Origin: a virus | Lineage: Duplodnaviria; Heunggongvirae; Uroviricota; Caudoviricetes | Reading direction: 5' to 3' (one strand) | IMG/VR virus record: IMGVR_UViG_2585427782_000001 | DNA: 33,888 nt | Shown here: positions 1-33,888 of the stretch, one piece after another | Layout of the letters: each line of letters opens with the position of its first letter | How positions within the stretch are numbered: position 1 is the first letter of the stretch | Position numbers and translations under genes: made by a program | The notes under the pieces: model-generated | Database searches by the model: none | Seen by the model: only the letters and a program-made list of their open reading frames with translations | What the model was told of the DNA's origin: nothing

Positions 1-72
1 ACGGAGTTTTCAGGGGGAAATGAAACCCGCCCACGTAACATCGCCTTCAATTATATTGTGAGAGCTGCATAA
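1..72 (+). CDS. 3' end of an alternative tail-fibre C-terminal (variable) segment; partial, enters from upstream of the window
   Basis: Frame 1 is open from base 1 to TAA at 70-72 (..TEFSGGNETRPRNIAFNYIVRAA*). The stop overlaps the ATG of the plus-strand tfa copy (TAATG), mirroring the fibre/tfa junction on the minus strand. Confidence 0.3.
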   Translation, partial: TEFSGGNETRPRNIAFNYIVRAA

Positions 73-674
73 TGAATAACGCGATATTAAATAATGACCT
101 TATTGCCGTACAGGCGGGAAACGTCATCGTTTATAACTATGATGGTGAGACGCGGGAATATATTTCCGAATCAACTGAATATCTTGCTGTGGGTGTTGGT
201 ATTCCGGCATGTTCCTGTTTAGAGGCTCCTGGTACACATAAGGATGGTTATTCAATTTGCCGCTCTGTGGATTTAAATTCATGGGAATATGTGCCGGACC
301 ATCGCGGTGAAATTGTCTTTAGCACCGAAACAGGAGAATCAAAAGAAATCACAGCACCGGGTGATTACCCTGATAATACAACCACTCTCGCACCGTTAAC
401 GCCATACGATAAATGGGATGGTGAAAAATGGGTGACAGATACTGAGGCACAGCATAGTGCCGCAGTAGGCGCGGCAGAAGCACAGCGTCAGTCACTGATT
501 GATACTGCAATGGCTTCCATTAGTCTGATTCAACTGAAATTGCAGACCGGGCGGAAGCTGACGCAGACAGAAAACACCCGACTTAACGCTGTGCTGGATT
601 ACATTGACGCGGTGACGGCAACTGATACCAGCACCGCGCCGGATATCAATTGGCCTGCTCCCCCGGAGGCGTAG
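72..674 (+). CDS. tail fibre assembly protein (Tfa), second copy in inverted orientation
   Basis: 200-aa ORF. C-terminal half (..[32 protein letters not shown]) matches the conserved Tfa C-terminus recalled from lambda Tfa / Mu U. Convergent with and overlapping the minus-strand tfa. Confidence 0.8.
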   Translation: [200 protein letters not shown]

Positions 675-1062
675 GCCAGACGGGATTTGATGTATCAACG
701 CGCATCAGCAAGACCCGGTATTTTTTCCATTCAGATAACGCGGCGGTTTCTTCTGCCGTCGCGATTTCCGCATCAAAAGCATCCTGTCTCCAGACTATTT
801 CCTTATCAGCCATAGAACGCAATACCGTTCTTTTCTGTTCAGCCTGAATAATCTGTTGTTCAGCGGAGAGTGGCGGGATATCAATCCACGCAGGATTACC
901 ATTTTTATCAGCCCCCAGCGTTTTGCCTTCTGGCGCTACGCCTGTGTAAATTGCCATTGTTTCATCATCAACATCAGCGCCATTTTCAGGCCATGAACCG
1001 GCGCTGATATATACATCTTTTAGTGCTTCCGGATAGAAAGAGCCTTTATAAAATTTATTCAT
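646..1062 (-). CDS. tail fibre assembly protein (Tfa)
   Basis: Starts [12 protein letters not shown] at an ATG 2 nt after the fibre stop. C-terminus ..[36 protein letters not shown] closely resembles lambda Tfa (..[36 protein letters not shown]). The ORF track's 646..1092 uses an upstream in-frame start. Confidence 0.8.
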   Translation of the reverse strand: [138 protein letters not shown]

Positions 1063-1064
1063 TC

Positions 1065-1823
1065 TTAATACCCCAGCGCGATAAAACAACAATCTTCGGT
1101 GCCCTCTCCGGATGGCGACCAGTTCTGAATACTGATATGCGTTCTGCTGGCAATACGCACATTCATCGCGGCATTGTAGCCAGATGTTCCACGGTTTCCG
1201 GTCGCAAACAAACCTGCATAGGGAAAAGCAAATGGTAAGGCATATCCAGCATCAACTCCCTTTTGTGTTGCCACCGTTCCCCACTGCAACATAAGTTTCA
1301 CCGGGTTTCCTGTCGTCGCAATGCATGGAATGTAGATGTAGCCATTACCTGACATCATTGACCTGAAGCTGTCTAAATCCAGTAACTTCGAGGCATTATC
1401 TGCTCCAACATCTCGTGTTGCAGCGGTCCCTAACTGGAGCGCATTTCGGAAGGCTGATACATCAGAAATATCATATCCATTAGCCGATTTCTGCATAGCT
1501 CCGGAGGCTTTATCTATCGTTTCTCCCAAACTAAGGTTTTCGAGAGCCGTTTGCACAGTGCCATCCGATTTGATATCGCCAAACGGATTCTTGCGGCTTA
1601 ACAGCAGCGTACGAAGCGCGGTAAGCAACTGGTCGTGCCGCGCCTTCTCCAGGCTGGCACCGGAGGCCTCCACCACGCTACAAAGTTCTTCCTGCAACAT
1701 GTCAAAGTAGTCATCATCCAGATCGGTGGCAGGTGTGCCGGTCTGGGGGTTACCACGGGTAAAACCGTTCTTACCCGCGCCGAACTTATCCTTCTGCGCG
1801 GTTTTCGTGTCTATACGATGCAT
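1065..1823 (-). CDS. tail fibre protein (short Mu S-like fibre with constant N-terminus and variable C-terminus)
   Basis: 252-aa ORF directly downstream of the baseplate genes and upstream of tfa; it contains the hix/gix-like site at 1521-1546. Confidence 0.7.
1521..1546. other. candidate Hin/Gin/Pin-family inversion crossover site inside the tail fibre gene
   Basis: ttctcccaaactaaggttttcgagag matches the recalled hixL site TTCTTGAAAACCAAGGTTTTTGATAA at about 19 of 26 positions, including the AAAC-N-AAGGTTTT core and central AA. Confidence 0.5.
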
Positions 1824-1826
1824 GGA

Positions 1827-2411
1827 TTACTCCGGATATTTAAAAATTACGTAGGTATGCGAAGGGCAGAGTTTGTTAAGCACGCACTCGACAACGGTGT
1901 CGCCCCAGATACGCAGTGCGGAATCACAGGGATCGCCACATGTCATCCAGGTGGTGTTGGTGGCGGCTGGCATGTTGACCTGCCAGTAATACCGCCATTC
2001 CGGCGCATTCACTGCGTCAGTACAGGCCGATGAGCAGGTGAACGTGCTTTTATCGTATCGCGTGATAGTGGCGTCTGGTCTGCCCAGGGCAGCAAGCTGT
2101 GCAAGGTAAAAATCCTCATTGATGCCGCCCGCCAGATTAACCTTCGCATCCAGCCGTTGCTGACGCTGGCGAAGGGTCTGTGTCCCTGCGGGAATACATT
2201 CATCCGGCAGGCCGCACAGACGCTCCCAGCGATTTATCAGTTCGGTGGTGGTGCGCGGATCCAGCTCCCGCATCAGGGCATCCGCACGCTGATGAACGCG
2301 GGTTAATGACGGTGCCGCACCGGCAATCGCCGGATCGCTGGCTGACCACGCCGGACCGGGGGGCAACAGTGCCGACAACAGACGGATGTAATCATCGTTT
2401 GTCACGTCCAT
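1827..2411 (-). CDS. Mu gp48-like tail protein (DUF2313-type)
   Basis: 194-aa ORF between the baseplate J-like gene and the tail fibre, matching Mu/P2-type tail gene order; family assignment by position and recalled similarity. Confidence 0.65.
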
Positions 2412-3460
2412 GAAATCGTCCCCAGTACCGCCAGTTCATTTTTTGCAATGGAGATATTGTCTGCCGGTGCAAGCAACTGATGGCTGTATTCCCCGTTCGC
2501 ACCGGAAATCGCTTCACTGATACGCGACACCTTCAGTTCTCCCTGCGGATAACCATCACGCAGCAGGAACGAACGCAACTCGGTGGTGATGGCAGCCCGT
2601 ATTTCTGGTGTATCCGGCGTCACACGGATATGAAAATCCACCGTATGCGCCACCGGCCTGAACACATACAAATCAGAGCCTGCCACCGGGGCCAGTGGCC
2701 CGATATGTTGTCTTGCCGCCGTTTCCGTTGATTCTTCCGGAATGGGATTAATCAGGTCGCTGCTGGCAATCATCACACCGACAGTCCCCGTTCCCATCCA
2801 GTGTCGGTATGTCCATGCGCGGGTAATGCCGGGCACTTCTTTAGCCCAGACGACATAGTCCCCGTCAGCCCCGCCCTGAGGCGTCCAGTAATACCGCTCA
2901 ATGACGCGGGCGCGCCACGTTTCCAGCTCTTCAGTATCAAATCCACCTGTCAGTGTATCTGCCACGCCGGAAGACGGCAGACCATTCACCGGCGTGACCA
3001 GGATTAATGACGTACCGTCGTCAGCGTTACCGACCGCGCCTGCACTTGAGCAGGCGATCGGCACGCGCAGGACACCACCGGAGCTGGTTGCATCGGCAGT
3101 TGCCGTGTACTGAACCAGGTCATCGCGCTGAATAACACTCCCGGCGGTCACCTTCAGGCCATCGCTGACACCTTCCCAGCGCATATACCCGCTGGCAGCC
3201 GTGGCCCCCTTGCGCGGACACCGTTTCATCGCAGCATGTCGCGCCAGCCAGGACTCATCGCACAGGTCAGGCAGCATGTTCATTGCCAGATAATCGATGT
3301 ACCCGTAAACCGTATGCAGCGCCGCCGCATACACCTTTGCCCGCACGTCTTCATCCATGCGCCGGAGCGTGTCGCTGACGTCCAGCCTGGCGAATAAATC
3401 GTTACGGAGCATACTGATATTTTCTGCCAGCGTCGGGCGCTGAAATTCACTGTCCGCCAT
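2402..3460 (-). CDS. baseplate J-like protein (Mu gp47 / P2 gpJ family)
   Basis: 352-aa ORF; size and position in the baseplate operon; overlaps its neighbours by a few nt as in coupled operons. Confidence 0.75.
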
Positions 3461-3875
3461 GCGTTATCGCACTCCACAGATCATCAAAAGAAATCATTAC
3501 CGGTCCGTCACGACGCCAGAGAGTGATACTGTTACCCAGTTCATTAATCCCGGTGCGGCGGATATCCAGATCAATACGGGACACCACGCCGTCATCAATC
3601 ATCCATTGCAGGCATTCGCGGATATACCCCCTTACCGTCTGCACCAGCTGATTGGTCAGTTTGCTGCGCTGAAGCAGCCACAGTCGGGAGCCGTAACGGT
3701 CATTCTGTACCGCAGGCCAGGTATCCCCCCACCATCCCATCGGGACGTCGGCGTTGTCATCAGGCTCCGCCCGCCGCCAGGTAAACAGGGAAATCACCAC
3801 GGCGCGGGTCAGCGGATCCAGCGGTGCGCTGGCGCAGGTGCGTTTACCGTTCACCGTCAGCCACAGTTCCATCAT
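3447..3875 (-). CDS. baseplate protein (Mu gp46-like)
   Basis: 142-aa ORF between the baseplate V-like and J-like genes. Confidence 0.6.
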   Translation of the reverse strand: MMELWLTVNGKRTCASAPLDPLTRAVVISLFTWRRAEPDDNADVPMGWWGDTWPAVQNDRYGSRLWLLQRSKLTNQLVQTVRGYIRECLQWMIDDGVVSRIDLDIRRTGINELGNSITLWRRDGPVMISFDDLWSAITHGGQ

Positions 3876-4420
3876 GCCTCCATCGCTTTATCCGGTTTGT
3901 CGGTGTTACTGCCCTGACCGTTCTCTCTGTGACGATGCCCGTTATAGGCAAGCCGCATCGCTGACATGGTGGTGCCGCTGGAGTCGCACAGGTCTTTCAC
4001 CTGTCCGGTCACTTCCAGGTCCATTTCAAAACGAGCCTTAGGCGCATTGCGAAACGTGATCGTTTTACCTGCACCGTCCACCACGATCCCCGCCCGGGTC
4101 AGCGTCACGGACTGCCCCTGATCGTCATAGACAGCCACCTCACCCGTCTGCAGCCCTTTCAGGCGGTAGCGCCGGTCCGACACCGTAACAACCACCGCAT
4201 GAGAACGGTCACCATCCGGAAACAACACCACCGCTTCCGCACCGCTGTTTGCCCTTGCTGTAAAACCGTAGGGTTCAAGATGTTCAACCCCGGCTTTGGG
4301 TTCACCGGCAATCAGGGACACATCCACGGTCTGACATTTCGTGGCGGCACTGATGCTTTTCACCACGGCCCGCCCAATCAGGCCGAGGAGTTGTCGCTGC
4401 ATGGCTTCAATCGTCCTCAT
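3872..4420 (-). CDS. baseplate assembly protein V / spike (Mu gp45-like)
   Basis: 182-aa ORF; position in the conserved myovirus baseplate gene order. Confidence 0.65.
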   Translation of the reverse strand: MRTIEAMQRQLLGLIGRAVVKSISAATKCQTVDVSLIAGEPKAGVEHLEPYGFTARANSGAEAVVLFPDGDRSHAVVVTVSDRRYRLKGLQTGEVAVYDDQGQSVTLTRAGIVVDGAGKTITFRNAPKARFEMDLEVTGQVKDLCDSSGTTMSAMRLAYNGHRHRENGQGSNTDKPDKAMEA

Positions 4421-5499
4421 CAGAACGGGTCCTCCTGTACTCTGGCTTTTTTCTTTTTCCGCGCGCCGGGGGCTTCGGGTTCAGGCAGATAAGCATCAGG
4501 CGGGCCGACACGGATTTCCGTCAGGGTGCCGTTCTGGTCCTGAGTAAACGTGACTTCCGAGACAAGCAGTTCGGTATTGTCGAAACCACAGACCGGATCG
4601 AAGACAATCACCCGCTGGTTGGGTTGCCACAGCGTACCGTTACCCTGTCGCCAGCCCTGCACCACATAGGTGGTTTCATCCGTCCGCGCCGCCCGTTGTC
4701 GGGCTTCAAAGTCCGCACGGGCAATACAGCCTGCCCCCGTAGCCTGCCCTGTCTGCCTGATATACATCGGACGGTAACGGGCAATAAATGCGTCCTCTGT
4801 GCGGGCCCGCAGCGCGGTGGTGGTGGCCTCACCGAAATCATCGTCGTTTCCGGCACGCTGCCCCGCCACCTGGTAAACAGAAAACCGCTCCCGGATACTC
4901 TTCTCCGTATCGCAGGAAAGGATGTTTTCCCCGAGTACCAGCGCAGTATGTGCCCGCGTTGAGCCAATACCGCCAATCACCAGCCTGCCGTGCGGGTCGT
5001 CGTAAGCCAGTGCCTGCTGCTGACCGAGTATTTTGTTGATTACCTCAATCACCGTTTCACCGTGATCAGGCTGGACATCAGGAATAACACCCGACGGCGC
5101 ACCGCTGTTCACCACCTCAATGCCGAAAGGCGCAGCAAGCGCCTGCGCAATCTGCACCAGCGAGCGTCCGTTAAACTGTGTCGGTTCGGCTGCACAGTCA
5201 ATCAGGTCAGCAGTCAGACTACGTCCGGCAATACCGGTGCTGACCGAACGGGCATCGTAACGAACGGGCGTCGCCTCCACCCAGCCGGTGATCACCAGCT
5301 CATCACCAATCAGCACTTCCACTTTTGAACCGTTTTTAATGCGCGGCTGAAGCGTGGTGATACCCTCATCTCCCGGCCACTGGCGGGTAATCTCCACGCT
5401 GAAATCCCGCGCCAGTCGTTCAATACCGGCACCGATGCGCACCGATGTCCAGCCATTCCACTCCCGGCCATTTACCCGTAGCGTGACATTGTCGTTCAT
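4420..5499 (-). CDS. baseplate hub / tail protein (Mu gp44, P2 gpD-like)
   Basis: 359-aa ORF following the DNA circulation-like gene; contains a lysine run near the C-terminus. Confidence 0.65.
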   Translation of the reverse strand: MNDNVTLRVNGREWNGWTSVRIGAGIERLARDFSVEITRQWPGDEGITTLQPRIKNGSKVEVLIGDELVITGWVEATPVRYDARSVSTGIAGRSLTADLIDCAAEPTQFNGRSLVQIAQALAAPFGIEVVNSGAPSGVIPDVQPDHGETVIEVINKILGQQQALAYDDPHGRLVIGGIGSTRAHTALVLGENILSCDTEKSIRERFSVYQVAGQRAGNDDDFGEATTTALRARTEDAFIARYRPMYIRQTGQATGAGCIARADFEARQRAARTDETTYVVQGWRQGNGTLWQPNQRVIVFDPVCGFDNTELLVSEVTFTQDQNGTLTEIRVGPPDAYLPEPEAPGARKKKKARVQEDPF

Positions 5500-6866
5500 T
5501 GCACTGGCACCTTCAGAGGGATCACCGGCACAAAGCCGGGATGCGTAATGGCATTACGCCGGATAATGTCCGCGTCACGCGCCGCGTTATCAAACCAGGT
5601 CGCCGCCAGCACCAGCGCGGGTAAAACCTCATCCGGTGTGCGCTGAATGATCCGTGCAGACTGTTCAAGGCGCGTGTTGATATCCGCATTCAGATCTGCT
5701 TTCACCCGGCGCAGCGCCAGAAACAGCGCATCACTGGTTGTACGGGACAACTCCTTATCAATTGCCGTATTCAGTGTGTCGCGAATGTCAGTCAGTTCTT
5801 CCCACGTCGGCAGGTCAACCGTGTTTTTCACCGCCGGTGCATTGTTCAGTGCCGGATGCGTGACGGAAGGCCAGCCAGTGCTCTGCGCGGGTGTTGTTGC
5901 CTGCCCCACTGCGGAATTCTGCATCACCGCGGAAGTTGTTGGCGCAGGCAATCGTGTGACGGCATACGCCGCTTCGCTGATTGCGGTCGTACGAAGGGTG
6001 CTGGCAACCACGTTACGCTGCTGCGTCGCCGTGGCGGTGGTTTTACTGTCCGTTTTCCAGACGCCGCGCGGTTGCAGATCGCTGCCGAGGCTGACACCGG
6101 AAAGCGTTTTGATCATGGTGACCAGGTCGCTGGCGTTACCATAAAGGCGTTTCCCGGTACGCCACATTTTCTGCACCTGCTCAACGAAATTTTTGCCTGA
6201 CGATGGCGGCGGCAGAAGTACCGAGATATCCCCCTGCAACAGCCTGGCGGCATCCGATACGGCAGAATCCACCACTTTCATCGCATCAGAAACATACCCC
6301 AGCATTATGCTGGCATTACCGATAACGTCGTTCTGCACGAAATCCGCCACACCATCGATACTGAAACCGCTGAAGCTGTCACTGATGCAGTCATCCAGTG
6401 CAGAACAGGATGACATCAGCGTCTGCGCCGTCGCCGCACCTGATGTGGGGTAAGAGAGTTCTCCTGCTTCGACAAACTTCAGGTCAAAGCGGACAATACG
6501 CCCTTCACTTTTCGATGTGCTGACCCGAACTTCCCCGTCAACACAGACTTTCAGCTCACCATATGTCGGGTGGACAAGCGTGCCGGGACCGGGTTTATTC
6601 AGCGCTTCAATCAGGCGATCGCGCTGGTCAAAGCAGTCATCTCCCACCACATAAGCTGTGATGGACGGGCGGAAAGTGACTTTTCCCAGATCTTCGGTAT
6701 AGGGTTTGTCGCGGTTCGGGTATTCGTGCGTTTCCACACGACGACCGGTTCCCGCACTTTCTTCTTCAACCTTAAACGGCACACCGCGAAATGACGCGTC
6801 CTGAAGTCTGTCTTTCCACGTCATATAAACTCCGTACATAAAAAATCCCACCGGAGTGGGACTCAT
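5496..6866 (-). CDS. Mu gp43-like DNA circulation protein (tail/baseplate)
   Basis: 456-aa ORF immediately downstream of the tape measure gene, as in Mu. Confidence 0.65.
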   Translation of the reverse strand: MSPTPVGFFMYGVYMTWKDRLQDASFRGVPFKVEEESAGTGRRVETHEYPNRDKPYTEDLGKVTFRPSITAYVVGDDCFDQRDRLIEALNKPGPGTLVHPTYGELKVCVDGEVRVSTSKSEGRIVRFDLKFVEAGELSYPTSGAATAQTLMSSCSALDDCISDSFSGFSIDGVADFVQNDVIGNASIMLGYVSDAMKVVDSAVSDAARLLQGDISVLLPPPSSGKNFVEQVQKMWRTGKRLYGNASDLVTMIKTLSGVSLGSDLQPRGVWKTDSKTTATATQQRNVVASTLRTTAISEAAYAVTRLPAPTTSAVMQNSAVGQATTPAQSTGWPSVTHPALNNAPAVKNTVDLPTWEELTDIRDTLNTAIDKELSRTTSDALFLALRRVKADLNADINTRLEQSARIIQRTPDEVLPALVLAATWFDNAARDADIIRRNAITHPGFVPVIPLKVPVQ

Positions 6867-6884
6867 TAACAGATTAATTTTTCA

Positions 6885-8720
6885 TTACCTGCCAAAGCGC
6901 GTATAGCCAACATCATGGCTGACATCAAAACCGCTGGATCGCGTTTCCATAACCCGCATACCCGGAGGCGAATTCACAAAAGAGACCTTGATCTCACCAT
7001 CAACTTTTGGCGCAGAAGCTTTGTTAATCATGAAGGGGTTCGGGCCTGTGACATCGGAGGCGTTGTTTGACTGAGCCGGATCCACCACCGGATAAGGTGT
7101 GTATCCCCGCGCCGGTATTCCCGTCCCATAAGCATCATAAGCACCCGCGCCCCACTGCGCAGAGTTAATGGCATCGACCGTGTCACCGGAACTGTCGGTA
7201 AACCACTCAATAATTGGCTTCAGCTTGTCCCACATATCCTGAAACCACTTAACAACCGGCCCCCAGTTATTGATCACCATCCCCAGCGGCGACCAGGCAA
7301 AAACTTTCTTAAGGAGTTCCCAGCCAGCCTCAAAATAAGGACCAATGGTTTCCCAGAGTTTCTTAAAATAAGGTCCGACAACATCCCAGTTAGTGATAAT
7401 TAATCCCGCAGCCAGGGCTATCGCCGTCGCAATCATGCCAATCGGCGTCATCGACATGATCCTGCTGACAATACTGATGGCACCGCCAACACCCATCAAT
7501 CCCAGTTTCAGAATCGCAAGACCGGCAGCAAGCCCAACGACGCCGCGAATAACCCGGGGATTTTCATCCGCAAACTTCGTGAATTTCTCCCCCAACTCCC
7601 CCAGCCATTGCGTGATATTTTTAGCGTCACCAGAAAATGCGCCGCCAATAGCCGCAAGGCCGTTAGTTGCGGTCCCCGTCATTGCCTCCCACAGGTTGGA
7701 CAGCGTACCAAGCTGGGCCTGAACACGTTTATTCAGGCTGGCCTGTTTATTCATCTTCTGCTGGATCTGATCGTAGCCATCCTTTCCTTTATCGATTAGT
7801 GCATTGACCACCTGAAGGGTTTCGGCATCATCACCAAATATTGCCTTAAGTACACCTGTTCGCTTAACGTCGGTCAGTTTTCGCAGCTTTGCCAGTTGCC
7901 TGAACATGTTATCAAGACCGCCAAAACTTCCTTTGCCGTCAGTAAAATCGAGCTGTACCCCGAGTTTCTGGCGGGCCATGATTTTATTGACGTCCCTGAT
8001 TTTCTTAACGCTTAATCCGGACTGGATAACTTTTCGCAGGGCGTTACCTGCCGACTCCCCGTTCATCCCCATCTGATCCATCATGACGCTGATGGGGGCA
8101 AGGCTCTGTGCAGCCTGAAGACCGTCCTTGTTCACCATCTTCAGAACAGAGCTGGTTTTAGTGAAGAAGGACAACATGTTGGTATCGTCAACACCCAGAT
8201 AAAACGCCTTCTGGATAGTGTCGAACAGCCCCATCATGTCTTCTGACGCCGTTCCGGTAGCATCCTGCATCTTTGCAGCAAACTCAGCAGCCGCTTCCGG
8301 TGTTTTTTTCAGTTGTACCGCAAGATAAGCTGTCGCTTTACCCACACCACCAAGAATGTTTTCTGCCGGGATCCCCTGACGCACCAGCATCTGCATCATG
8401 TTCTGGAAATCAGCCGTTGTACCGGGTAGCTGGTTACCCAGGCCAATAGCCAGTTTATTGATGTCCTGAAAGCTCTTTCCAACCTCGCCGTTCGCATCCA
8501 TCATGGCGACTTTCAGCCCGGTGGCGGCGTTTTCCTGATCGGCATAAGATTTCAGGGAAAGCGTCAGACCAGCTGCCAGTCCGCCACCAAGCGCCAGCCC
8601 ACCCTGTGACGCTTCTTCCGCCTGGCGTTTAAATCCCCGGATTTTCTTTTGCATTTTCGACAGCGCGGGAGAAAGTCTGTCGACACCGGTGATCAACGCC
8701 TTAAGCTCAAATTCAGCCAT
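6885..8720 (-). CDS. tail tape measure protein
   Basis: 611-aa ORF with Ala/Gly-rich and hydrophobic segments typical of tape measure proteins; sits between the chaperone and baseplate genes. Confidence 0.85.
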   Translation of the reverse strand: MAEFELKALITGVDRLSPALSKMQKKIRGFKRQAEEASQGGLALGGGLAAGLTLSLKSYADQENAATGLKVAMMDANGEVGKSFQDINKLAIGLGNQLPGTTADFQNMMQMLVRQGIPAENILGGVGKATAYLAVQLKKTPEAAAEFAAKMQDATGTASEDMMGLFDTIQKAFYLGVDDTNMLSFFTKTSSVLKMVNKDGLQAAQSLAPISVMMDQMGMNGESAGNALRKVIQSGLSVKKIRDVNKIMARQKLGVQLDFTDGKGSFGGLDNMFRQLAKLRKLTDVKRTGVLKAIFGDDAETLQVVNALIDKGKDGYDQIQQKMNKQASLNKRVQAQLGTLSNLWEAMTGTATNGLAAIGGAFSGDAKNITQWLGELGEKFTKFADENPRVIRGVVGLAAGLAILKLGLMGVGGAISIVSRIMSMTPIGMIATAIALAAGLIITNWDVVGPYFKKLWETIGPYFEAGWELLKKVFAWSPLGMVINNWGPVVKWFQDMWDKLKPIIEWFTDSSGDTVDAINSAQWGAGAYDAYGTGIPARGYTPYPVVDPAQSNNASDVTGPNPFMINKASAPKVDGEIKVSFVNSPPGMRVMETRSSGFDVSHDVGYTRFGR

Positions 8721-24652: not shown

Positions 24653-24660
24653 ATTAGACA

Positions 24661-25809: not shown

Positions 25810-25869
25810 ATGCGTTGAGTAGTATTCCGGGACGCCAATCCCGTGTGCCGATTTTGCGGCAACGCACAG

Positions 25870-26729: not shown

Positions 26730-26934
26730 TTAAAGGCGGTGCTAACACCGCCCCATACCATTACTCCACATCTTACGCAACTTGATAATTATGCTCTATT
26801 AAATACCCACAATATTTCATCAATGCATGGGCCAGCTACAAAATATTTACCGTGGTTATTCCTGTTTTCGCAACATCTCAAAAGAACAATAAACACTGTA
26901 TTTCTTCAAGTAACGAAGAATCTTTCTTTGCCTG

Positions 26935-27636
26935 TCATACACTGGCTCCTTTCAGTCCGAACTTAGCTTTGATTTCTGCGATCTTCGCCAGAGACTGAAC
27001 ACGATTAAGCGGTCTCCCGCCCATAACAGGAAGCTGTTTTACTGGTTCAGGTATCACCTCACCACGGTTAATTCGCGCGGTCATACAGGACAGTTCATCG
27101 GCAGCCTTGCGCCGTAATTCCGCATCAGTAAGCGCATTGGCCCGCATGTTCTGGTACAGGTTGGTAACCAGCCAGTAGTGCGCGTTTGATTTCCATGGAT
27201 AAGACTCTGCGTCCGGATACAGGCCTCGCTTCCGGCAATACTCGTAAACCATATCAACCAGCTCGCTGACGTTTGGCAGTCCGGCGATAACGGATGCTTC
27301 TTCCCGGCACCATGCAACAAACTGCCCGGGTGATGGCAGGAATGGTCGATTCTGCCGACGGGCTACGCGCATTCCTGCGTTAACCTGTTCCATTGTGGTG
27401 ATCTCGTTTTCCCGGAAAGCCAGAACCCACTGGCGGCGGATTTCGTTCAGTTCGTTCTGATCCCGGTTAGCCAGGCTCGCAGGGAAAGTTGCCAGTAACT
27501 GGCTGAACACACCGTTGATGATCTGCGCTACCTGCTGTACCTGCGGCTTTTCGTCGTACTGTTCCGGCATATTGTTGGCGAGCCGGCGCATCTGCTCACG
27601 GTCAAAGTTAACCATCTGTGCGGCGATGTTTTTCAT
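26935..27636 (-). CDS. P: replication protein P (DnaB helicase loader)
   Basis: 233-aa product near-identical to recalled lambda P (MKNIAAQMVNFDREQMRR.ANNMPEQYDEKPQVQQVAQIINGVFSQLLATFPASLANRDQNE..). Confidence 0.95.
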   Translation of the reverse strand: MKNIAAQMVNFDREQMRRLANNMPEQYDEKPQVQQVAQIINGVFSQLLATFPASLANRDQNELNEIRRQWVLAFRENEITTMEQVNAGMRVARRQNRPFLPSPGQFVAWCREEASVIAGLPNVSELVDMVYEYCRKRGLYPDAESYPWKSNAHYWLVTNLYQNMRANALTDAELRRKAADELSCMTARINRGEVIPEPVKQLPVMGGRPLNRVQSLAKIAEIKAKFGLKGASV

Positions 27637-28562
27637 AAATCCACCCCGTAAATCCAGTCAGTGTTCGTCAGGTCGAGTTTTGGTTTGCCGGCTGTCACGC
27701 CAGCCTGTTGCTTGTTTCGGTTGATTTCGAGCTGGGTCCACTTGTCGCGGAGTTTGGCCGGACTCAGCACGTTACCGGACCAGAAGTTGTCCTGGCATGC
27801 CCAGCGGAACAGCACGCACATGTCGCGGTGGTTACGTCCGTCACGTTCACGCATCAGGCGGATATCGTTAGCCCACCCTGCAAAATTCGGTTTTCTGGCT
27901 GATGGCGCGATGGTCTTCACCATGTCAAACATCCACTCTGCGGCGGTCAGGTCTTCTGCTGTCCCCCACCTGCTGCCGCTCTGAATTGCAGCATCTGGTT
28001 TCTCCACAGGAAGATCGTTTTCTGGTTGGTCAGAGGATTCGCCAGAATTCTCGGACGAAAAAGGTTTTATATTGTCTTTTGTTAGTTTGTCTTTTGTGTT
28101 TACCTGATTCGGGTAAGTGCCTTTACCTGATTTGGGTAAACTTTTCTTACCTGATTCAGGTAAATTTACCTCTTTCAGGTAAACTTTATTTTTCTTACCT
28201 GATTCGGGTAATGTTGACCATTCACTGACCACATTATTAATGCCGATATTCCGCCCGCTCTGAATAAAAATCCCACGCTTTACCAGAACACTTTTTGCAG
28301 CAGAACACTTGTGCGGCAATATCCCGGTCAACTCGGAAAGTTGCTCGTTGCTCACCCAATCCAGTTTTTTATTAAAGCCATATGTTTTGCGCATGACAGC
28401 CAGGAAGACCAGAAGCTGGTGCTGTGTTAATCCGGCCAGCATCACAGCTTCCAGCAACTCATTTGCAATGCGCGTATAACCATCATCGAGATCTGCCACA
28501 CGCGGCTCCTTTTGTGCCGCATCCGGCACTGGAAAATTGAATATCTCAGCAGTGTTTGCCAT
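27633..28562 (-). CDS. O: replication initiator O (iteron-binding)
   Basis: Start chosen at MANTAEIFNFP with GGGAGG 5-6 nt upstream; the N-terminal region ..ADLDDGYTRIANELLEA..LTQHQLLVFLAVMRKTYGFNK resembles lambda O; ori iterons lie inside the gene. The ORF track's 28652 start is an upstream in-frame codon. Confidence 0.85.
   Translation of the reverse strand: MANTAEIFNFPVPDAAQKEPRVADLDDGYTRIANELLEAVMLAGLTQHQLLVFLAVMRKTYGFNKKLDWVSNEQLSELTGILPHKCSAAKSVLVKRGIFIQSGRNIGINNVVSEWSTLPESGKKNKVYLKEVNLPESGKKSLPKSGKGTYPNQVNTKDKLTKDNIKPFSSENSGESSDQPENDLPVEKPDAAIQSGSRWGTAEDLTAAEWMFDMVKTIAPSARKPNFAGWANDIRLMRERDGRNHRDMCVLFRWACQDNFWSGNVLSPAKLRDKWTQLEINRNKQQAGVTAGKPKLDLTNTDWIYGVDL
28100..28212. repeat. origin of replication: five iterons inside the O gene, with adjacent AT-rich tract
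   Basis: ttacctgattcgggtaa (28100), ttacctgatttgggtaa (28123), ttacctgattcaggtaa (28147), ttacctctttcaggtaa (28166), ttacctgattcgggtaa (28196); each is internally palindromic (TTACC..GGTAA). AT-rich tract at about 28058-28099. Confidence 0.75.
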
Positions 28563-28648
28563 AATTCCTCCCGCAATGAGTGTGTTACGATTTGCACCTG
28601 AAAGTCGGTTCTGTTCCCGCAGACCGACTTTCGCCATTTCTGAACCTG

Positions 28649-29188
28649 TCATATTGCCCCCAGCATGGTGGTCACCATCGCCATTAATGGACCAGCCAGA
28701 TCCGGGTCCACACGAAACATCGACACAATACCTTCACTCATTTCCTTCAGTTTCTGGTGGCGTGGTGCGTTGAGAATGACAGCCTGTTTTGCCTCACTGA
28801 GTTCCTTTTCCATTTCAGCCAACCGAGTCATGAAGCTATCCTGCTCAACCAGGTAACCGCGATATTCCAGCGGTAGTACCGCCAGAATTGCCGGGGTCAG
28901 TTCACGCACGTTATTTCGGTATTTTTCAGAATCGAATTTGTTATCGAGGAAGCGGAACAGCTTCTGGCGTGCACGGCTGACATCATCAGGGAAATCGATG
29001 GTGCCGTCGCCCTGCTCCCGATACTCATTCACAATGAGTGCGGCAACGACATCCTGATTATCTACAGCCGACCAGGCGCGGACGGCATCACGGATTTTTT
29101 CGTGGCCTGGCACCTGTTTTGTTTGAGAACGATTTATCACCGCAGTCGGGCTAAATCCGCTAGTCTGTTGGTATGTAAGTGGTTGCAT
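28649..29188 (-). CDS. YdaT-like protein at the cII position
   Basis: 179-aa ORF between cro and O with RBS AAAGGAG; segment ..LTPAILAVLPLEYRGYL.. resembles my recollection of Rac YdaT; not lambda cII. Confidence 0.45.
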   Translation of the reverse strand: MQPLTYQQTSGFSPTAVINRSQTKQVPGHEKIRDAVRAWSAVDNQDVVAALIVNEYREQGDGTIDFPDDVSRARQKLFRFLDNKFDSEKYRNNVRELTPAILAVLPLEYRGYLVEQDSFMTRLAEMEKELSEAKQAVILNAPRHQKLKEMSEGIVSMFRVDPDLAGPLMAMVTTMLGAI

Positions 29189-29231
29189 AATTGACTCCTT
29201 TAGTTTGAATTGACTGTTAAGTTGATTGCTT

Positions 29232-29245
29232 ATTGTTAAAGAGCG
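29232..29245 (-). promoter_or_regulatory. boxA-like element (rrn-type) in the pR transcript downstream of cro
   Basis: Minus strand reads CGCTCTTTAACAAT, matching the recalled boxA consensus (lambda CGCTCTTA, rrn GCTCTTTAACAAT). Confidence 0.5.
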
Positions 29246-29257
29246 TGAAATGGAAAT

Positions 29258-29488
29258 TTAAGCTGCGTTCTTTTCGGTGTGTGGAAACAACTTCGGAAGA
29301 TCCGGGCGAATCTGGTATGCCTTCACTACTCCACCAGTAGCCGTAACAATGCTGCCGACATGTTCAGGGGATACCTTTGCTTTGTTGTGAAGCCACTTAT
29401 AGACGGCCTGCTGTGAAACTTCGCAAGCAGCGCCCAGTTTCTTTTGTGAACCAACGATATTGATCGCTGTTTTGATAGCTGGGTTCAT
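29258..29488 (-). CDS. Cro-like repressor (small HTH protein)
   Basis: 76-aa ORF divergent from cI with GGAGG RBS; ..QKKLGAACEVSQQAVYKW.. is helix-turn-helix-like. Confidence 0.65.
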   Translation of the reverse strand: MNPAIKTAINIVGSQKKLGAACEVSQQAVYKWLHNKAKVSPEHVGSIVTATGGVVKAYQIRPDLPKLFPHTEKNAA

Positions 29489-29592
29489 AACAACCTCCGT
29501 GGTTAATTTGAATCAAAATTAAAACTATGGTTGTTTTTAGTCAACAACTATTTTCGTTTGATGGAATAAAACCTTGGTTGTACATTTGGACT
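29489..29592. promoter_or_regulatory. divergent pR / pRM-like promoter and operator region
   Basis: Minus strand: TTGACT-17-TAATTT then GGAGG and the cro ATG. Plus strand: TTGATG-17-TACATT ending 6 nt before the cI ATG (leaderless-like). Palindromes ttaatttgaatcaaaattaa (29503-29522) and GTTGTT-N7-AACAAC (29530-29548). Confidence 0.55.
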
Positions 29593-30282
29593 ATGAAAAC
29601 AACACTCTCAGAAAGACTTAAAGAAGCCAGATTAGCGCGAGGCCTTACACAAAAGGCGCTTGGGGATTTGGTCGGGGTTAGCCAGGCTGCTATTCAGAAA
29701 ATCGAAACAGGGAAAGCTAATCAAACAACTAAAATCGTGGAGATCGCGAACGCTTTGGGTGTGCGCGCAGAATGGTTATCTTCTGGCGTTGGAAATATGT
29801 CAGACAGTACAGTGCAACCAATACAATCAACTGTCAGCCATTCCAAATACTTTAAGATTGACGTTCTTGATATAGAAGTGAGTGCCGGGCCGGGAGTCAT
29901 CAACCGTGAGTTTGTAGAAGTTCTACGCTCGGTTGAGTACTCGTTTGACGATGCTCGTCACATGTTCGATGGTAGGAAGGCAGAAAATATCCGCATCATT
30001 AACGTACGCGGTGACAGCATGTCAGGAACGATCGAACCAGGTGACCTTTTGTTCGTTGATATCACTGTTAAATCTTTCGACGGTGATGGTATCTATGCGT
30101 TTCTGTACGACGACACAGCCCATGTAAAGCGCCTGCAAATGATGAAGGATAAGCTGCTCGTTATCTCTGATAACAAGAGTTACTCACCGTGGGACCCGAT
30201 CGAGAAAGACGAGATGAACCGGGTATTCATTTTCGGGAAAGTCATCGGGAGCATGCCGCAGACGTACAGGAAGCATGGGTAA
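29593..30282 (+). CDS. CI-type repressor (HTH plus LexA-like S24 peptidase domain)
   Basis: MKTTLSERLKEARLARGLTQKALGDLVGVSQAAIQKIETGK (HTH) and ..VRGDSMSGTIEPGDLLFVD..HVKRL.. (Ser/Lys dyad region); start set at the internal ATG at 29593. Confidence 0.9.
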   Translation: MKTTLSERLKEARLARGLTQKALGDLVGVSQAAIQKIETGKANQTTKIVEIANALGVRAEWLSSGVGNMSDSTVQPIQSTVSHSKYFKIDVLDIEVSAGPGVINREFVEVLRSVEYSFDDARHMFDGRKAENIRIINVRGDSMSGTIEPGDLLFVDITVKSFDGDGIYAFLYDDTAHVKRLQMMKDKLLVISDNKSYSPWDPIEKDEMNRVFIFGKVIGSMPQTYRKHG

Positions 30283-30330
30283 ACATGGAACTTATGAAAC
30301 TTTAAATTAATTAAATATTGAGTTTATATA

Positions 30331-30747
30331 ATGCAACATAATATTCATAGTGATTATTTCAAGTGGTGGTGCGGAACAGTAATCATTGGAGCAATCCCTA
30401 TCTTTATTAGATTTATTGCTTATTTCATCACTAATAAAAACATAGAGCTGATCAATATAACTGAGTTGATATGTTTTGGCTTTGCCATACAAATATCCAG
30501 TATTTATTACGGAATGGGCCAACCCAGCAAGCAAACTGAAAACAATATTATTATAAACACTACCATATCGATTGTTTTCATTGTACTTTTTTCTATAATT
30601 TACATTATTGTTATGCTGGCTGATAACATCCTTAACATGAATACGACTCGCATATTAGTCGCTATTACTTGTGGTATATCCTTATACATTGGACAAAATT
30701 CAGTCAGGTGTGCTATTATCAATAACAAAGTAGTGGCGCAGGAGTAA
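30331..30747 (+). CDS. multi-helix membrane protein in the rexAB position (candidate exclusion/defence component)
   Basis: 138-aa ORF with 3-4 hydrophobic stretches (WWCGTVIIGAIPIFIRFIAYFI, ELICFGFAIQISSIYYGM, IIINTTISIVFIVLFSIIYIIVMLA, TRILVAITCGISLYIG); visibly AT-rich; directly downstream of cI on the same strand. Confidence 0.5.
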   Translation: MQHNIHSDYFKWWCGTVIIGAIPIFIRFIAYFITNKNIELINITELICFGFAIQISSIYYGMGQPSKQTENNIIINTTISIVFIVLFSIIYIIVMLADNILNMNTTRILVAITCGISLYIGQNSVRCAIINNKVVAQE

Positions 30748-30750
30748 ATT

Positions 30751-30927
30751 ATGGAGTACTTAATTACTATTTTATCCATAATAGCTGTTGTGATACCTGC
30801 TGTATTGGCATGGTTTTCAAGAAAAAACCTCAAAAATGCACAGGAAACTTTAATGCACATAGAAAGGGTCAGAAAGTCAAATAGCGATGACTTTGAAAGA
30901 AAGAAAGAACAACTTAAATATCACTAA
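30751..30927 (+). CDS. small single-helix protein (58 aa), translationally coupled
   Basis: GGAG overlaps the stop of the upstream gene, 6 nt before the ATG; MEYLITILSIIAVVIPAVLAWFSRKNLKNAQETLMHIERVRKSNSDDFERKKEQLKYH; below the ORF-track size cutoff. Confidence 0.35.
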   Translation: MEYLITILSIIAVVIPAVLAWFSRKNLKNAQETLMHIERVRKSNSDDFERKKEQLKYH

Positions 30928-30937
30928 TGGAATTGGT

Positions 30938-31837
30938 ATGCAGTTAAAAAATATCATTTATATTGATTATGAGAAGGTCTACTCTTTAAGCTCTCAATTA
31001 TTTGAGGGCGTAATTCAATCCGCGATGGAGCATAAAGAGTCTACTCTTTCAAATATAGATGCAGTCGAAATAAAGACAAAAAGTAGTTCAAGTAAAACGA
31101 GTGACACAAAAAAAATATCAACAGTGTTAAACCCTCATGATTATCATTATCTGAAATTTGAAAACGAACTTAGCAAAAGAGGAATTCTGTCTAACATAAC
31201 TTCCCCGATCGACTCGAACAAAATTAAGGCTAATTGCTTTGTTAAAATCACCTGCCCAATTCAATTTAATGACTATAATAAATTAAAAAATACCGCTAAG
31301 AATTTCTGTAAAACTAACTATGCTATTAATTTCGTTCATCGAAATGACGAATTAGAAAGTCTAGAATCGATGCTGAAATCGATAAAACCCAAATCCAATG
31401 AATTTAATATTATCAAGGCAAGACAAGCAGAAATTAAAAGTGAGCTTGATAATTTAACATCTCCAAATCAGAAAAAATTCTTTGAGCATTTGTCTTCTGT
31501 TTTAGATTACGCATATGGTGACGAAATAGAAATATCACAAAAAATGCAAGATATTAAATTCACCTCATTCTTAATCAGAGATTTTCTTAAAATCAGTCCA
31601 GAAATGTTTGTAAAGTTATATTCTCGTCGAACGACCTCTGCATTCACAGTCGTAGGGATGATAACGCGTACATCAACGTCTGAAGGTAATCAGGAATCAG
31701 AGGCTCGTGAACTAAACGGCATTCGCAGTGCAGTCTGGAATATGAATGACAGCCTTTTTGATCTGGAGTCAACATTTTGCGCCCCTGACTCTGATGAGTA
31801 TTTCATTGAGCCTATTGCTGTTTACAATGAGCTATAA
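30938..31837 (+). CDS. hypothetical soluble protein (~300 aa), third gene of the cI-downstream operon
   Basis: AT-rich, Lys/Asn/Ser-rich ORF with no nucleotide-binding or nuclease motif recognisable by eye; start could instead be the ATG at 30887 (316 aa); followed by a terminator. Confidence 0.5.
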   Translation: MQLKNIIYIDYEKVYSLSSQLFEGVIQSAMEHKESTLSNIDAVEIKTKSSSSKTSDTKKISTVLNPHDYHYLKFENELSKRGILSNITSPIDSNKIKANCFVKITCPIQFNDYNKLKNTAKNFCKTNYAINFVHRNDELESLESMLKSIKPKSNEFNIIKARQAEIKSELDNLTSPNQKKFFEHLSSVLDYAYGDEIEISQKMQDIKFTSFLIRDFLKISPEMFVKLYSRRTTSAFTVVGMITRTSTSEGNQESEARELNGIRSAVWNMNDSLFDLESTFCAPDSDEYFIEPIAVYNEL

Positions 31838-31843
31838 AAACAA

Positions 31844-31870
31844 CCCGGCCACCGTGCCGGGTTTTCTTTT
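31844..31870 (+). terminator. intrinsic terminator closing the cI-distal operon
   Basis: CCCGGC-caccgt-GCCGGG followed by TTTTCTTTT. Confidence 0.6.
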
Positions 31871-31998
31871 GCCCCTCCCCTCATCACACACACCGTTCAA
31901 AAAACCACCACAACCTCGCTTCAGTTATCGCTATGCGATGCAAGTCACAAAATAAATCCATCCTAAATACAACCAGTTATTTCTAAAATAACCAACAA

Positions 31999-32041
31999 AA
32001 CAACTTTTGTTGTTGACGATAAAACAACTATAGTTTTAAAT
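31999..32041 (+). promoter_or_regulatory. pL-like promoter with overlapping palindromic operator candidates
   Basis: Perfect palindrome aacaacttttgttgtt (31999-32014) overlaps -35 TTGACG (32013-32018); 17-nt spacer; -10 TTAAAT (32036-32041); second palindrome aactatagtt (32026-32035) sits in the spacer. Confidence 0.4.
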
Positions 32042-32147
32042 GAATTCATCGCAACAACACAACGATACGGCAATCACCTGATTCACCGTTGCGATGACCG
32101 CTTAGATCCGCAGCTTGAATTTCAGCAGGCTCCGGGGAGTGCGAGGG

Positions 32148-32525
32148 GTGAAGCGGACGCGTGAACGTCGGTGTGACCAGCTGAAATCAACTCAACACTT
32201 CATACCTCAGTCGCTTCAACGAGGCGGCTTAGTTATGACAACCGGCGGCCATCCACCGCCTGAATACGCGCAGAAGTCTATATATGTTCAGCAGCCCAGC
32301 TTACGGGCAGGAGTTTTTATGGTTCATCAACATTACGGAACGCAGACCGTTAATCGCGGTGCGGTCATGCCAGGAATGCTGGTCAAACACAAAGATGGTA
32401 CCTGGACTGCATCAGCTAATTTACGCGGACGGCTATATCTGCATCGCGGCATCGAGCGCACTTATACCCGTGATTTGCTCGTGGAAGTTTTTCTCGACGG
32501 ACGCGGCAACGGCCTGAATCACTAA
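32148..32525 (+). CDS. candidate N-like antiterminator with Arg-rich N-terminus
   Basis: The ORF-track start at 32115 is a TTG. A GTG at 32148 with GGGGAG 8 nt upstream gives an N-terminus KRTRERRCDQLK, reminiscent of the lambda N arginine-rich motif (QTRRRERRAEKQ). Alternative ATG start at 32235. Confidence 0.3.
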   Translation: MKRTRERRCDQLKSTQHFIPQSLQRGGLVMTTGGHPPPEYAQKSIYVQQPSLRAGVFMVHQHYGTQTVNRGAVMPGMLVKHKDGTWTASANLRGRLYLHRGIERTYTRDLLVEVFLDGRGNGLNH

Positions 32526-32600
32526 TCCCCTTTCCTGTTTTCCTAATCAGCCTGGCATTTCGCGGGCGATATTTTCACAGCCATTTTCAGGAGTTCAGCC

Positions 32601-32897
32601 ATGAACGCTTATTACATTCAGGATCGTCTTGAGGCTCAGAGCTGGGCGCGTCACTACCAGCAGATCGCCCGTGAAGAGAAAGAGGCAGAACTGGCAGACG
32701 ACATGGAAAAAGGCCTGCCTCAGCACCTGTTTGAATCGCTATGCATCGATCATTTGCAACGCCACGGGGCCAGCAAAAAAGCCATTACCCGTGCGTTTGA
32801 TGACGATGTTGAGTTTCAGGAACGCATGGCAGAACACATCCGGTACATGGTTGAAACTATTGCCCACCACCAGGTTGATATTGATTCAGAGGTATAA
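32601..32897 (+). CDS. gam: Gam (RecBCD inhibitor), short form only
   Basis: 98-aa product [60 protein letters not shown].. near-identical to recalled lambda GamS; AGGAG 8 nt upstream; an in-frame stop 13 codons upstream excludes the long form. Confidence 0.93.
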
Positions 32898-32902
32898 AAC
32901 GG

Positions 32903-33688
32903 ATGAGTACAGCACTCGCAACGCTGGCAGGGAAGCTGGCTGAACGTGTCGGCATGGATTCTGTCGACCCACAGGAACTGATCACCTCTCTTCGCCAGAC
33001 GGCATTTAAAGGTGATGCCAGCGATGCGCAGTTCATCGCATTGTTGATCGTCGCCAACCAGTACGGCCTTAATCCGTGGACGAAAGAAATTTACGCCTTC
33101 CCTGACAAGCAGAACGGCATCGTTCCGGTGGTGGGCGTTGATGGCTGGTCCCGCATCATCAATGAAAACCAGCAGTTTGATGGCATGGACTTTGAGCAGG
33201 ACAATGAATCCTGCACATGCCGGATTTACCGCAAGGACCGTAATCATCCGATCTGCGTTACCGAGTGGATGGATGAATGCCGCCGCGAACCATTCAAAAC
33301 CCGCGAAGGCAGAGAAATCACCGGACCGTGGCAGTCGCATCCCAAACGGATGTTACGGCATAAAGCCATGATTCAGTGTGCCCGTCTGGCCTTCGGATTT
33401 GCGGGTATCTATGACAAGGATGAAGCCGAGCGCATTGTCGAAAATACTGCATACACTGCAGAACGTCAGCCGGAACGCGACATCACTCCGGTTAACGATG
33501 AAACCATGCAGGAGATTAACACTCTGCTGATCGCCCTGGATAAAACATGGGATGACGACTTATTGCCGCTCTGTTCCCAGATATTTCGCCGCGACATTCG
33601 CGCATCGTCAGAACTGACACAGGCCGAAGCAGTGAAAGCTCTTGGATTCCTGAAACAGAAAGCCACTGAGCAGAAGGTGGCAGCATGA
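32903..33688 (+). CDS. bet: Bet (Red-beta single-strand annealing protein)
   Basis: 261-aa product [85 protein letters not shown].. matches recalled lambda Bet. Confidence 0.95.
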
Positions 33689-33888
33689 CACCGGACATTA
33701 TCCTGCAGCGTACCGGGATCGACGTGAGAGCTGTCGAACAGGGGGATCATGCATGGCACAAATTACGGCTCGGCGTCATCACCGCTTCAGAAGTTCACAA
33801 CGTGATAGCAAAGCCCCGATCAGGAAAGAAGTGGCCTGACATGAAAATGTCCTACTTCCACACCCTGCTGGCTGAGGTTTGCACCGGT
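33685..33888 (+). CDS. exo: Exo (Red-alpha exonuclease), 5' part, truncated by the window end
   Basis: [65 protein letters not shown].. matches recalled lambda Exo; ATGA overlap with the bet stop. Confidence 0.93.

Follow-up and report, generated by a model that had tools for sequence, protein, structure and literature searches.

The IMG/VR viral record IMGVR_UViG_2585427782_000001, a 33,888-nucleotide stretch of DNA analysed here over its full length and called the window throughout, carries lambda-like genes together with an HK97-type head and a Mu-type contractile tail, which raises the question of what kind of phage it represents and how its parts came together. A first-pass annotation, made from the sequence alone, had described it as a mosaic temperate-phage genome, and this is borne out. 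With a probability of roughly 0.9, we conclude that the window holds most (about 34 kb) of an apparently intact Escherichia coli/Shigella prophage, a temperate myovirus of the SfV/SfII group, the sequence running from a putatively invertible tail-fibre cassette to the start of exo. By its gene content, the late half (1521-19150) is one coherent module that comprises packaging genes (cos/HNH/terminase), a head of the HK97 family, and a contractile tail of Mu type with its baseplate, and the early/lysis half (19150-33888) is, on the same kind of evidence, a lambdoid patchwork.

Results and discussion

General features of the window

Open reading frames and base composition were computed over the whole window. 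A long minus-strand operon runs from about 29488 down to 646, and a plus-strand block extends from 29527 to the window end; GC content is about 55-59% at 1500-19000 and 32-51% in the rest. A tRNA scan of the window found none, and among the genes examined there was no IS element and no transposase. When bases 1-25000 were searched by megablast against 50,697 phage genomes, the top matches were SfII, SfI, SfIV, SfV and the Escherichia coli phages vB_EcoM-689R6 and 720R4, all about 97% identical and covering the structural part only. Bases 18700-33888 are instead matched piecewise, at 95-97%, by lambda-like E. coli phages (PhiR47_2 and others). Reference genomes were fetched and compared by local blastn (DNA) and tblastn (protein), with protein families called by Pfam, RNAs by Rfam, and further profiles taken from PHROGs. 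At the nucleotide level these comparisons gave matches to SfII and SfV over long segments, to lambda in three patches, and none to Mu or to the HK97 head genes.

A virion module of SfII type

SfII (NC_021857) matches the window from 1521 to 18798 as one 17,279-bp alignment with 97.6% nucleotide identity, its HNH gene is 91.5% identical, and its packaging, head and tail genes, like those of SfI and SfIV, are colinear with the window's. Each of the 25 virion proteins aligns over its whole length with a protein of SfII or of close relatives; with all 25 full length and no IS element seen, the virion module looks intact. SfV (NC_003444) matches in two segments, 1518-12915 (96.6%) and 16510-18740 (98.0%), such that tail, neck and terminase are 96.6-98% identical to the window, whereas the connector-capsid-protease-portal block between them (12915-16510) is a different HK97-family allele. 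The block at 13166-16437 is 97% identical to SfII, but the SfV capsid and portal share only 26-28% amino acid identity with their counterparts here and the SfV protease has no match. This difference between the head of SfV and those of SfI, SfII and SfIV has been published earlier, and the head proteins of all four phages have been assigned to the HK97 family (PMC3851460).

The HK97 organization claimed for the head is upheld, with the order HNH-TerS-TerL-portal-S78 protease-capsid kept and each member called by its Pfam family (HNH, Terminase_4, TerL, a PF04860 portal, an S78 protease, and a PF05065 capsid with an N-terminal extension). No separate scaffold gene lies between protease and capsid, which are 14 bp apart, and the capsid carries an N-terminal extension of about 105 aa. 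Residues 1-114 have a weak coiled-coil-type match and behave as a delta-like scaffold domain, one that would be cleaved off. In a three-sequence capsid alignment (21-28% identity), K105 and L107 are invariant and A106 of the window lies opposite HK97 S104; the HK97 cleavage site, between K103 and S104, falls beside this aligned position. The chainmail crosslink residues of HK97 are not evidently conserved in an alignment that is weak at 21% identity: K169 corresponds to R171, and the window capsid lacks the segment that contains N356 and E363.

The terminase large subunit, portal, protease and capsid of HK97 share 25-36% amino acid identity with their counterparts in the window, the HK97 head genes have no DNA match, and the closest solved capsid is that of the Rhodobacter capsulatus gene transfer agent (RcGTA; 6TB9, E=8e-75), HK97 gp5 scoring E ~0.01; the HK97 organization therefore holds at family level only. 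Among the modules of the window, HK97 shares the head and no other. The genes at 11146-13117 that join head to tail (Table 1) are also supported by phrog_879.

The tail is a myovirus tail in Mu order, as the first-pass annotation had it. Starting at 11137 on the minus strand, 13 genes are colinear with Mu gp38-L-M-gp41-gp42-N-P-gp45-gp46-gp47-gp48-S-U, several with Mu-specific Pfam families; 10 of the 13 match Mu by tblastn (27-45% amino acid identity), while tube, chaperone and tape measure were assigned by Pfam and position. The baseplate proteins (1827-6866) share 27-45% identity with Mu and 98-100% with SfV, in whose own record tail genes are annotated as Mu-like (L, N, P and gp45-48). Nucleotide comparison with Mu gave no match, the similarity being at the protein level only, and outside the tail neither blastn nor tblastn found a Mu match; Mu transposition genes and Mu-type head genes are absent. 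What the window shares with Mu is thus the tail module, plus a fibre arrangement like that of the invertible G segment (see below).

Two smaller features of this half may be mentioned. In the tail chaperone gene, the slippery sequence T TTT TTC occurs near 8880 and an open reading frame in the -1 frame reaches 8713; this is the usual, conserved arrangement for a -1 frameshift, as in P2 E/E+E'. At the other end of the module, a GC-rich inverted repeat (GGGGCGGGC ... GCCCGCCCC) flanks the point between 18740 and 18741, within 18724-18777; this interval is probably the cos region, as judged from its sequence and position.

A lambdoid patchwork in the early and lysis half

The first-pass annotation regarded the combination of modules as one known from SfV-type phages. 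This holds for head and tail, but the early regions of SfV and SfII are different. The early/lysis half of SfII is wholly unlike the window's: it has a repressor and cro of its own, a replication gene of primosomal type, a dam gene, a Q and a holin that differ from those here, and also gtr genes and IS elements. The SfV early region is likewise unrelated, and none of the SfV-type early genes (YfdN/P/Q-like genes, dam, SfV cI/cro, SfV Q) occurs in the window. At the protein level, the early and lysis genes that match SfV or SfII are R (90%), rusA (38-39%), part of O (35%) and the repressor (41%), all but R weakly.

Is this half then lambda? Its early and late gene order is lambdoid overall, yet blastn against lambda (NC_001416) finds three patches only, together about 3.9 kb of the 33.9 kb (11%). 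The first (19621-20929, bor/iss-Rz/Rz1-R) is 92.7% identical to lambda 45500-46809 and 92.9% identical to borD-rzpD of the K-12 prophage DLP12; the second (26925-28099, P and the last ~466 nt of O) is 94.1% identical to lambda 39119-40293; and the third (32519-33888, gam, bet and the 5' end of exo) is 97.2% identical to lambda 31825-33193. The genes in these patches, which had been called essentially lambda sequence, are close homologues (89-99.5% nucleotide identity) and are not identical. The description of ninE as a lambda gene does not survive, as it shares 50.8% nucleotide and 32.3% amino acid identity with lambda ninE and is the DLP12 allele; the assignment of the whole nin block to DLP12 type is confirmed (Table 1). 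Nor can we uphold lambda-identical regulatory genes: the repressor, cro, the YdaT-family gene in the cII position and Q have no match to lambda in DNA or protein, no N or cII homologue was detected in the window, and lambda virion genes are absent from it.

The replication genes are of lambda O/P type, with O 69.5% identical to lambda in nucleotides and 61.5% in amino acids. Lambda homology, comprising the AT-rich region, the C-terminal domain of O, and P, resumes at lambda 39119, the base after the fourth lambda iteron, and five TTACCCGAATCAGGTAA iterons of the window stand in place of the four of lambda. This pattern is the classic one of a swap in origin specificity, in which the P-interacting C-terminus of O has been conserved.

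The lysis genes had been read as a lambda cassette in which the holin alone was exchanged. In the first patch, likeness to lambda begins 57 bp upstream of bor and breaks off about 5 nt into R, within the holin/R overlap. Everything on the other side of the R start is non-lambda, namely a holin of LydA type, the stretch between Q and holin, and a Q of family PF06323. Holin and Q come from another lambdoid lineage and have no match in lambda, HK97 or SfV. Since lambda-like DNA adjoins the holin on a single side, a one-gene exchange is not supported, and the holin lies at a module boundary and not within a lambda cassette. The bor homologue itself sits in a stretch that is 100% identical in nucleotides to relatives, where its RefSeq name is Iss (increased serum survival lipoprotein).

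These observations bear on the broader proposal that a basically lambda genome, retaining its regulation, lysis and recombination genes, took up an SfV-type virion module and exchanged only its holin. It would account for the high identity of R, Rz, Rz1, bor, P, gam, bet and exo to lambda, and for the holin being the only one of S-R-Rz-Rz1 that lacks a lambda match. We nevertheless consider it very improbable: only 11% of the window matches lambda DNA; the repressor, cro, the cII-position gene, Q and the stretch between Q and holin are all non-lambda, as are the nin block and, in O, the N-terminal half together with the iterons; no lambda-like sequence lies upstream of the holin (pR'/qut/Q); and the whole block from bor to nin (19556-23821) is 96% identical in other lambdoid phages, e.g. 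PhiR47_2.

Probable exchange of the tail-fibre cassette

The left end of the window is laid out like the G segment of Mu, with a fibre gene and tfa on the minus strand facing a convergent tfa' and an alternative fibre end on the plus strand. Homology to stfE/tfaE of the K-12 element e14 covers 22-678. Within the fibre gene, homology to SfII, SfV, e14 and E. coli relatives ends at 1518-1533, and reading the sequence at this break, followed by scanning of the relatives, revealed a 26-bp site of the Pin/Gin/Cin type. The site, TTCTCCCAAACTAAGGTTTTCGAGAG, is one mismatch from a 26-mer common to e14 stfP, SfV, SfII and the circular replicon pCE-O153H30-A; e14 has a second, more diverged copy beside pinE, and relatives carry this invertase. 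SfII shares the site with the window, but its fibre C-terminus and tfa are unlike the window's. A search for the canonical gix-type 26-mer, allowing up to three mismatches, found nothing, and a repeat search of bases 1-2600 found no second crossover site, which must lie to the left of the window.

The cassette itself has a wide distribution. Of 5426 complete E. coli genomes, 238 carry bases 640-1530 at 99.8% identity, among them plasmids of 96-100 kb, one of which is P1-like (DarA, two holin-family genes that are LydA/B-like by position, a recombinase, a long fibre, and convergent tfa genes). Homology to this plasmid spans 21-1537 of the window, its end thus falling within the 26-bp site. As homology to SfII sets in at 1521, the two overlap by 17 bp, including the central AA. 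Recombination at a Cin/Pin/Gin site would leave the parental sequences overlapping in this way. Sandmeier, Iida and Arber reportedly described such fibre exchange in the early 1990s.

Related prophages and the integrity of the element

In the same 5426 genomes, at least 80% of bases 1-25000 is held by 85, at about 97% identity, several of them with the early half contiguous. In the chromosome CP104681 (3.79-3.83 Mb), a prophage with IS insertions and pseudogenes accounts for 95% of bases 1-25000 and, at neighbouring coordinates, for 86% of 18700-33888. The 44.8-kb circle pCE-O153H30-A encodes pinE, Avs2, int, Red, O/P and SfV-like virion genes, with Avs2, not gtr, beside int, and a third relative, in NADC1036, adjoins tRNA-Thr/proA (thrW-proA). 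These three prophages have the same backbone as the window from fibre to Red, at 96-98% nucleotide identity, including the iss-Rz-R-LydA holin-Q-DLP12 nin block, lambda-like P/O and Red. They differ from it in their fibre cassettes and in their cargo, the window having DUF6414 and the others Panacea-domain, NACHT, HipA, emrE/ybcK, AAA+RloB or DUF3800 genes. The immunity region of pCE-O153H30-A is common to the window at 99-100% amino acid identity. Relative to the prophage in CP104681, otherwise 97% identical, there is an immunity-specificity swap at 29189-29726: cro is only 48% identical in amino acids, and the N-terminal domain of the repressor differs.

These relatives also speak to whether the two halves belong together. 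An SfV-like myovirus and a lambda-like siphovirus prophage might have been joined in assembly through shared lambdoid repeats, and such misleading repeats do exist, E. coli genomes having a median of three places that match parts of the window; moreover, no record in the phage genome collection spans both halves, the most covered being 43% of 8889-33888. However, the same series of junctions (TerS-HNH-iss-Rz-R-holin-Q-nin-...-P-O-immunity-Red) is found unbroken both in several closed chromosomes and in the 44.8-kb circle. An assembly chimera, to which we give next to no credence, was rejected on the ground that closed genomes show the same contiguity.

A further question is whether the window represents a decayed cryptic remnant and not a functional phage. 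Two such elements of E. coli K-12 are close to it. e14 matches three segments at 87-97.6% (22-678, 1521-3189, 15848-17585), of which the TerL-ymfR-portal and gp47-gp48-fibre pieces are 96-97.6% identical, and it also has a pin system; its fragments aaaE/ymfR/beeE and jayE/ymfQ/stfP correspond to the terminase/portal and baseplate/fibre genes of the window, and on this sequence evidence e14 is a deleted relative of the window phage. DLP12 matches in the nin block (95.2%) and borD-rzpD. Such 95-97% identical segments shared with cryptic elements, and the IS insertions and pseudogenes of the close relative in CP104681, would fit a remnant. Both e14 and DLP12 are heavily deleted, but deletions of this kind are not seen in the window; the genes examined include neither an IS element nor a transposase, and the virion, lysis, replication and recombination open reading frames are all full length relative to intact phages or relatives. 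We therefore regard decay as unlikely and prefer the reading of an apparently intact prophage.

Several points weigh against this preferred reading. The integrase (int), xis, the attachment sites (att) and the invertase all lie beyond the window edges, as would any O-antigen modification genes (gtrABC/oac) next to int, and none of the complete E. coli genomes or deposited phage genomes searched is at least 99% identical over the full window. The crossover site carries a C-to-T change adjoining its central AA dinucleotide. Inducibility and particle formation would be expectations only for a phage known here from its sequence, and the recombination mechanisms proposed below are likewise read from the positions of the joints.

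Joints and proposed origin of the mosaic

In ungapped alignments across the joints, identity is lost abruptly at each patch end, and the joints lie only a few bases from start or stop codons or else at a domain boundary. Besides the joints at bor and R described above, breakpoints fall in the last codons of kil, at the Q start codon/ylcG stop, at the stop of P (14 nt into ren of lambda), and at the stop codon of a 225-aa open reading frame (23821), the last being common to many relatives; the joint within O, at the last ori iteron, coincides with a domain boundary, and that in the fibre gene lies inside the 26-bp site. K-12 alone holds segments 95-97% identical to the window in both DLP12 and e14. 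We propose that repeated recombination among co-resident lambdoid and SfV-like prophages would have generated the patchwork, the Red system of the phage probably aiding the exchanges, with selection keeping only those at functional boundaries, and that fibre cassettes were probably swapped via invertase sites. The whole mosaic is ordinary phage mosaicism that follows textbook rules.

Table 1. Features of the window, in order of position (strand + or -).
Feature	Position	Strand	Evidence or identity
Alternative tail-fibre C-terminal 3' end, cut by left window edge	1-72	+	Frame 1 ends ...RPRNIAFNYIVRAA and stop
Alternative tail-fibre assembly protein tfa'	72-674	+	Caudo_TAP E=3.7e-33; 86% aa HK97 Tfa; 87% nt e14 tfaE
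Tail-fibre assembly protein (tfa)	646-1062, ATG at 1062	-	Caudo_TAP E=2.3e-31; 43% aa to Mu U over 68 aa
Tail fibre, conserved N-terminal and exchangeable C-terminal part	1065-1823	-	Gp53-like_C; 51% aa to SfV orf21 overall
26-bp Pin/Gin/Cin-type crossover site	1521-1546	+	TTCTCCCAAACTAAGGTTTTCGAGAG; sequence match to relatives
gp48-like	1827-2411	-	Phage_Mu_Gp48
gp47/J-like	2402-3460	-	Baseplate_J
gp46-like	3447-3875	-	GP46
gp45/V-like	3872-4420	-	Phage_Mu_Gp45
Hub, gpP-like	4420-5499	-	GpP-like domains (Pfam)
DNA-circulation, N-like	5496-6866	-	DNA_circ_N
Tape measure	6885-8720	-	PhageMin_Tail
Tail chaperone	8862-9131, -1-frame extension to 8713	-	Phage_TAC_7
Tube	9131-9487	-	Tail_tube
Sheath	9487-10983	-	Phage_sheath_1/1C/domII; 36% aa to Mu
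DUF2635/gp38-like	10967-11137	-	DUF2635; 42% aa to Mu
Tail terminator	11146-11706	-	Phage_tail_terminator
Tail completion/Neck1	11703-12209	-	
Head closure	12184-12594	-	Phage_HCP, head completion protein
Head-tail connector, gp6-like	12591-12914	-	Phage_connect_1
66-aa ORF	12917-13117	-	
Major capsid with N-terminal delta-like domain	13166-14371	-	Phage_capsid PF05065, residues 115-398, E=1.9e-80
S78 prohead protease	14386-15036	-	Peptidase_S78 PF04586, E=1.2e-31
Portal	15014-16255	-	Phage_portal PF04860, E=7.6e-108
YmfR-like 60-aa ORF	16255-16437	-	
Large terminase (TerL)	16449-18182	-	TerL_ATPase/TerL_nuclease
Small terminase (TerS)	18179-18682	-	Terminase_4
cos region (predicted)	about 18740, between HNH and TerS	-	Ends of linear SfV record map between 18740 and 18741
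HNH endonuclease	18799-19149	-	HNH
bor/iss	19675-19968	+	Lambda 93.2% nt, 91.8% aa
Rz	20000-20461	-	Lambda 98.7% nt, 99.3% aa
Rz1	20059-20241	-	Lambda 99.5% nt, 98.3% aa
R transglycosylase	20458-20934	-	Lambda 89.1% nt, 94.9% aa
Holin, LydA family	20921-21226	-	Phage_holin_3_3 PF16083, E=7.9e-22
Antiterminator Q	21548-22237	-	Phage_antiter_Q PF06323, E=4.7e-94
DLP12-like nin block (ylcG, rusA, ybcO, ninE, ybcN, ylcH)	22233-23821	-	95.2% nt to DLP12 over 1589 bp
Slot 1, lambda ren position	23823-26925	both	
225-aa ORF	23823-24500	-	No Pfam family above threshold
66-aa ORF and 88-aa ORF	within 23823-26925		
Bro-N/P22_AR_C antirepressor	25024-25632	-	Pfam
C4 antisense RNA	25679-25764	-	Rfam, 72.7 bits
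isrK	25789-25861	-	Rfam, 60.7 bits
VCH_CASS14 protein	26382-26729	+	Pfam
P	26935-27636	-	Lambda 94.6% nt, 96.1% aa
Five origin iterons inside O-like gene	28100-28211	-	TTACCCGAATCAGGTAA; iteron scan
O N-terminal half, non-lambda	28100-28652	-	Phage_rep_O, residues 51-145
YdaT-family gene, cII position	28649-29188	-	YdaT_toxin
YdaS/Cro-like gene	29258-29488	-	YdaS_toxin/P22_Cro
Repressor	29593-30282	+	HTH_3 and Peptidase_S24
Slot 2, repressor to kil	30283-31837	+	GC 32-36%
138-aa ORF, family-less	30331-30747	+	
58-aa ORF, family-less	30751-30927	+	
DUF6414 protein	30938-31837	+	Pfam E=1.1e-17
gam	32601-32897	+	Lambda 98.0% nt, 98.0% aa
bet	32903-33688	+	Lambda 97.5% nt, 99.2% aa
exo, first 204 nt (68 codons), cut by window end	33685-33888	+	Lambda 96.6% nt, 98.5% aa

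Variable cargo slots

Tile-wise comparison, together with the annotations of relatives, shows a conserved backbone and three variable slots, P-nin, repressor-kil and Q-holin, the last of which is filled in relatives. In the P-nin slot, relatives carry ren, emrE, ybcK, or an AAA ATPase with RloB. The window has there an antirepressor gene with C4 and isrK directly upstream of it, together a secondary immunity module of P1 immI-like or Gifsy-like kind. Of the 225-aa protein encoded next to the nin block, the first 23 residues resemble the DNA polymerase III theta/HOT family and the remainder matches only a PHROG that has no assigned function; the copy in CP104681 is interrupted by IS421.

The repressor-kil slot corresponds in position to rexAB and has the look of a defence hotspot, since its occupants in relatives are NACHT, HipA, Panacea-domain or DUF7946 genes (a DUF3037 gene is found there as well). 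The contents in the window are rare, being found in only one of the 5426 complete E. coli genomes. In the Dodola defence system (bioRxiv 10.1101/2024.10.26.620412), one of the components, DolA, belongs to the DUF6414 family. The slot contains no ClpB-like partner and gave no PADLOC match, and comparison of the cargo proteins with PADLOC, NCBIfam and PHROGs yielded no functional assignment. With the ClpB-like partner absent here, DUF6414 could represent an undescribed prophage-borne function.

One could go further and see in the window an unnamed SfV-like sub-lineage, in which the SfV-type early region was replaced wholesale by a lambda/DLP12-like one (Red, O/P, DLP12-like nin) with Rac-family immunity genes (so named from Pfam, Rac itself being outside the comparison), and in which an orphan DUF6414 gene with its 138-aa and 58-aa partners is a candidate for an undescribed defence or exclusion function at the rexAB position. 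We offer this as a tentative proposal, and a somewhat doubtful one.

Implications

There is little new biology in the window. Of minor practical interest are the iss (bor-like) allele, a serum-survival marker, and the rare DUF6414 cargo as a candidate defence gene. For annotation, the analysis corrects the view of the early region as ‘lambda’. Many E. coli prophages combine the SfII-type virion module with a lambda-Red/O-P early region, although no isolated phage so composed has been deposited. The window provides a clean example, at base resolution, of the established rules of lambdoid mosaicism: breakpoints between genes or between domains, an O/ori swap, immunity swaps, fibre exchange at an invertase site, and cargo slots.

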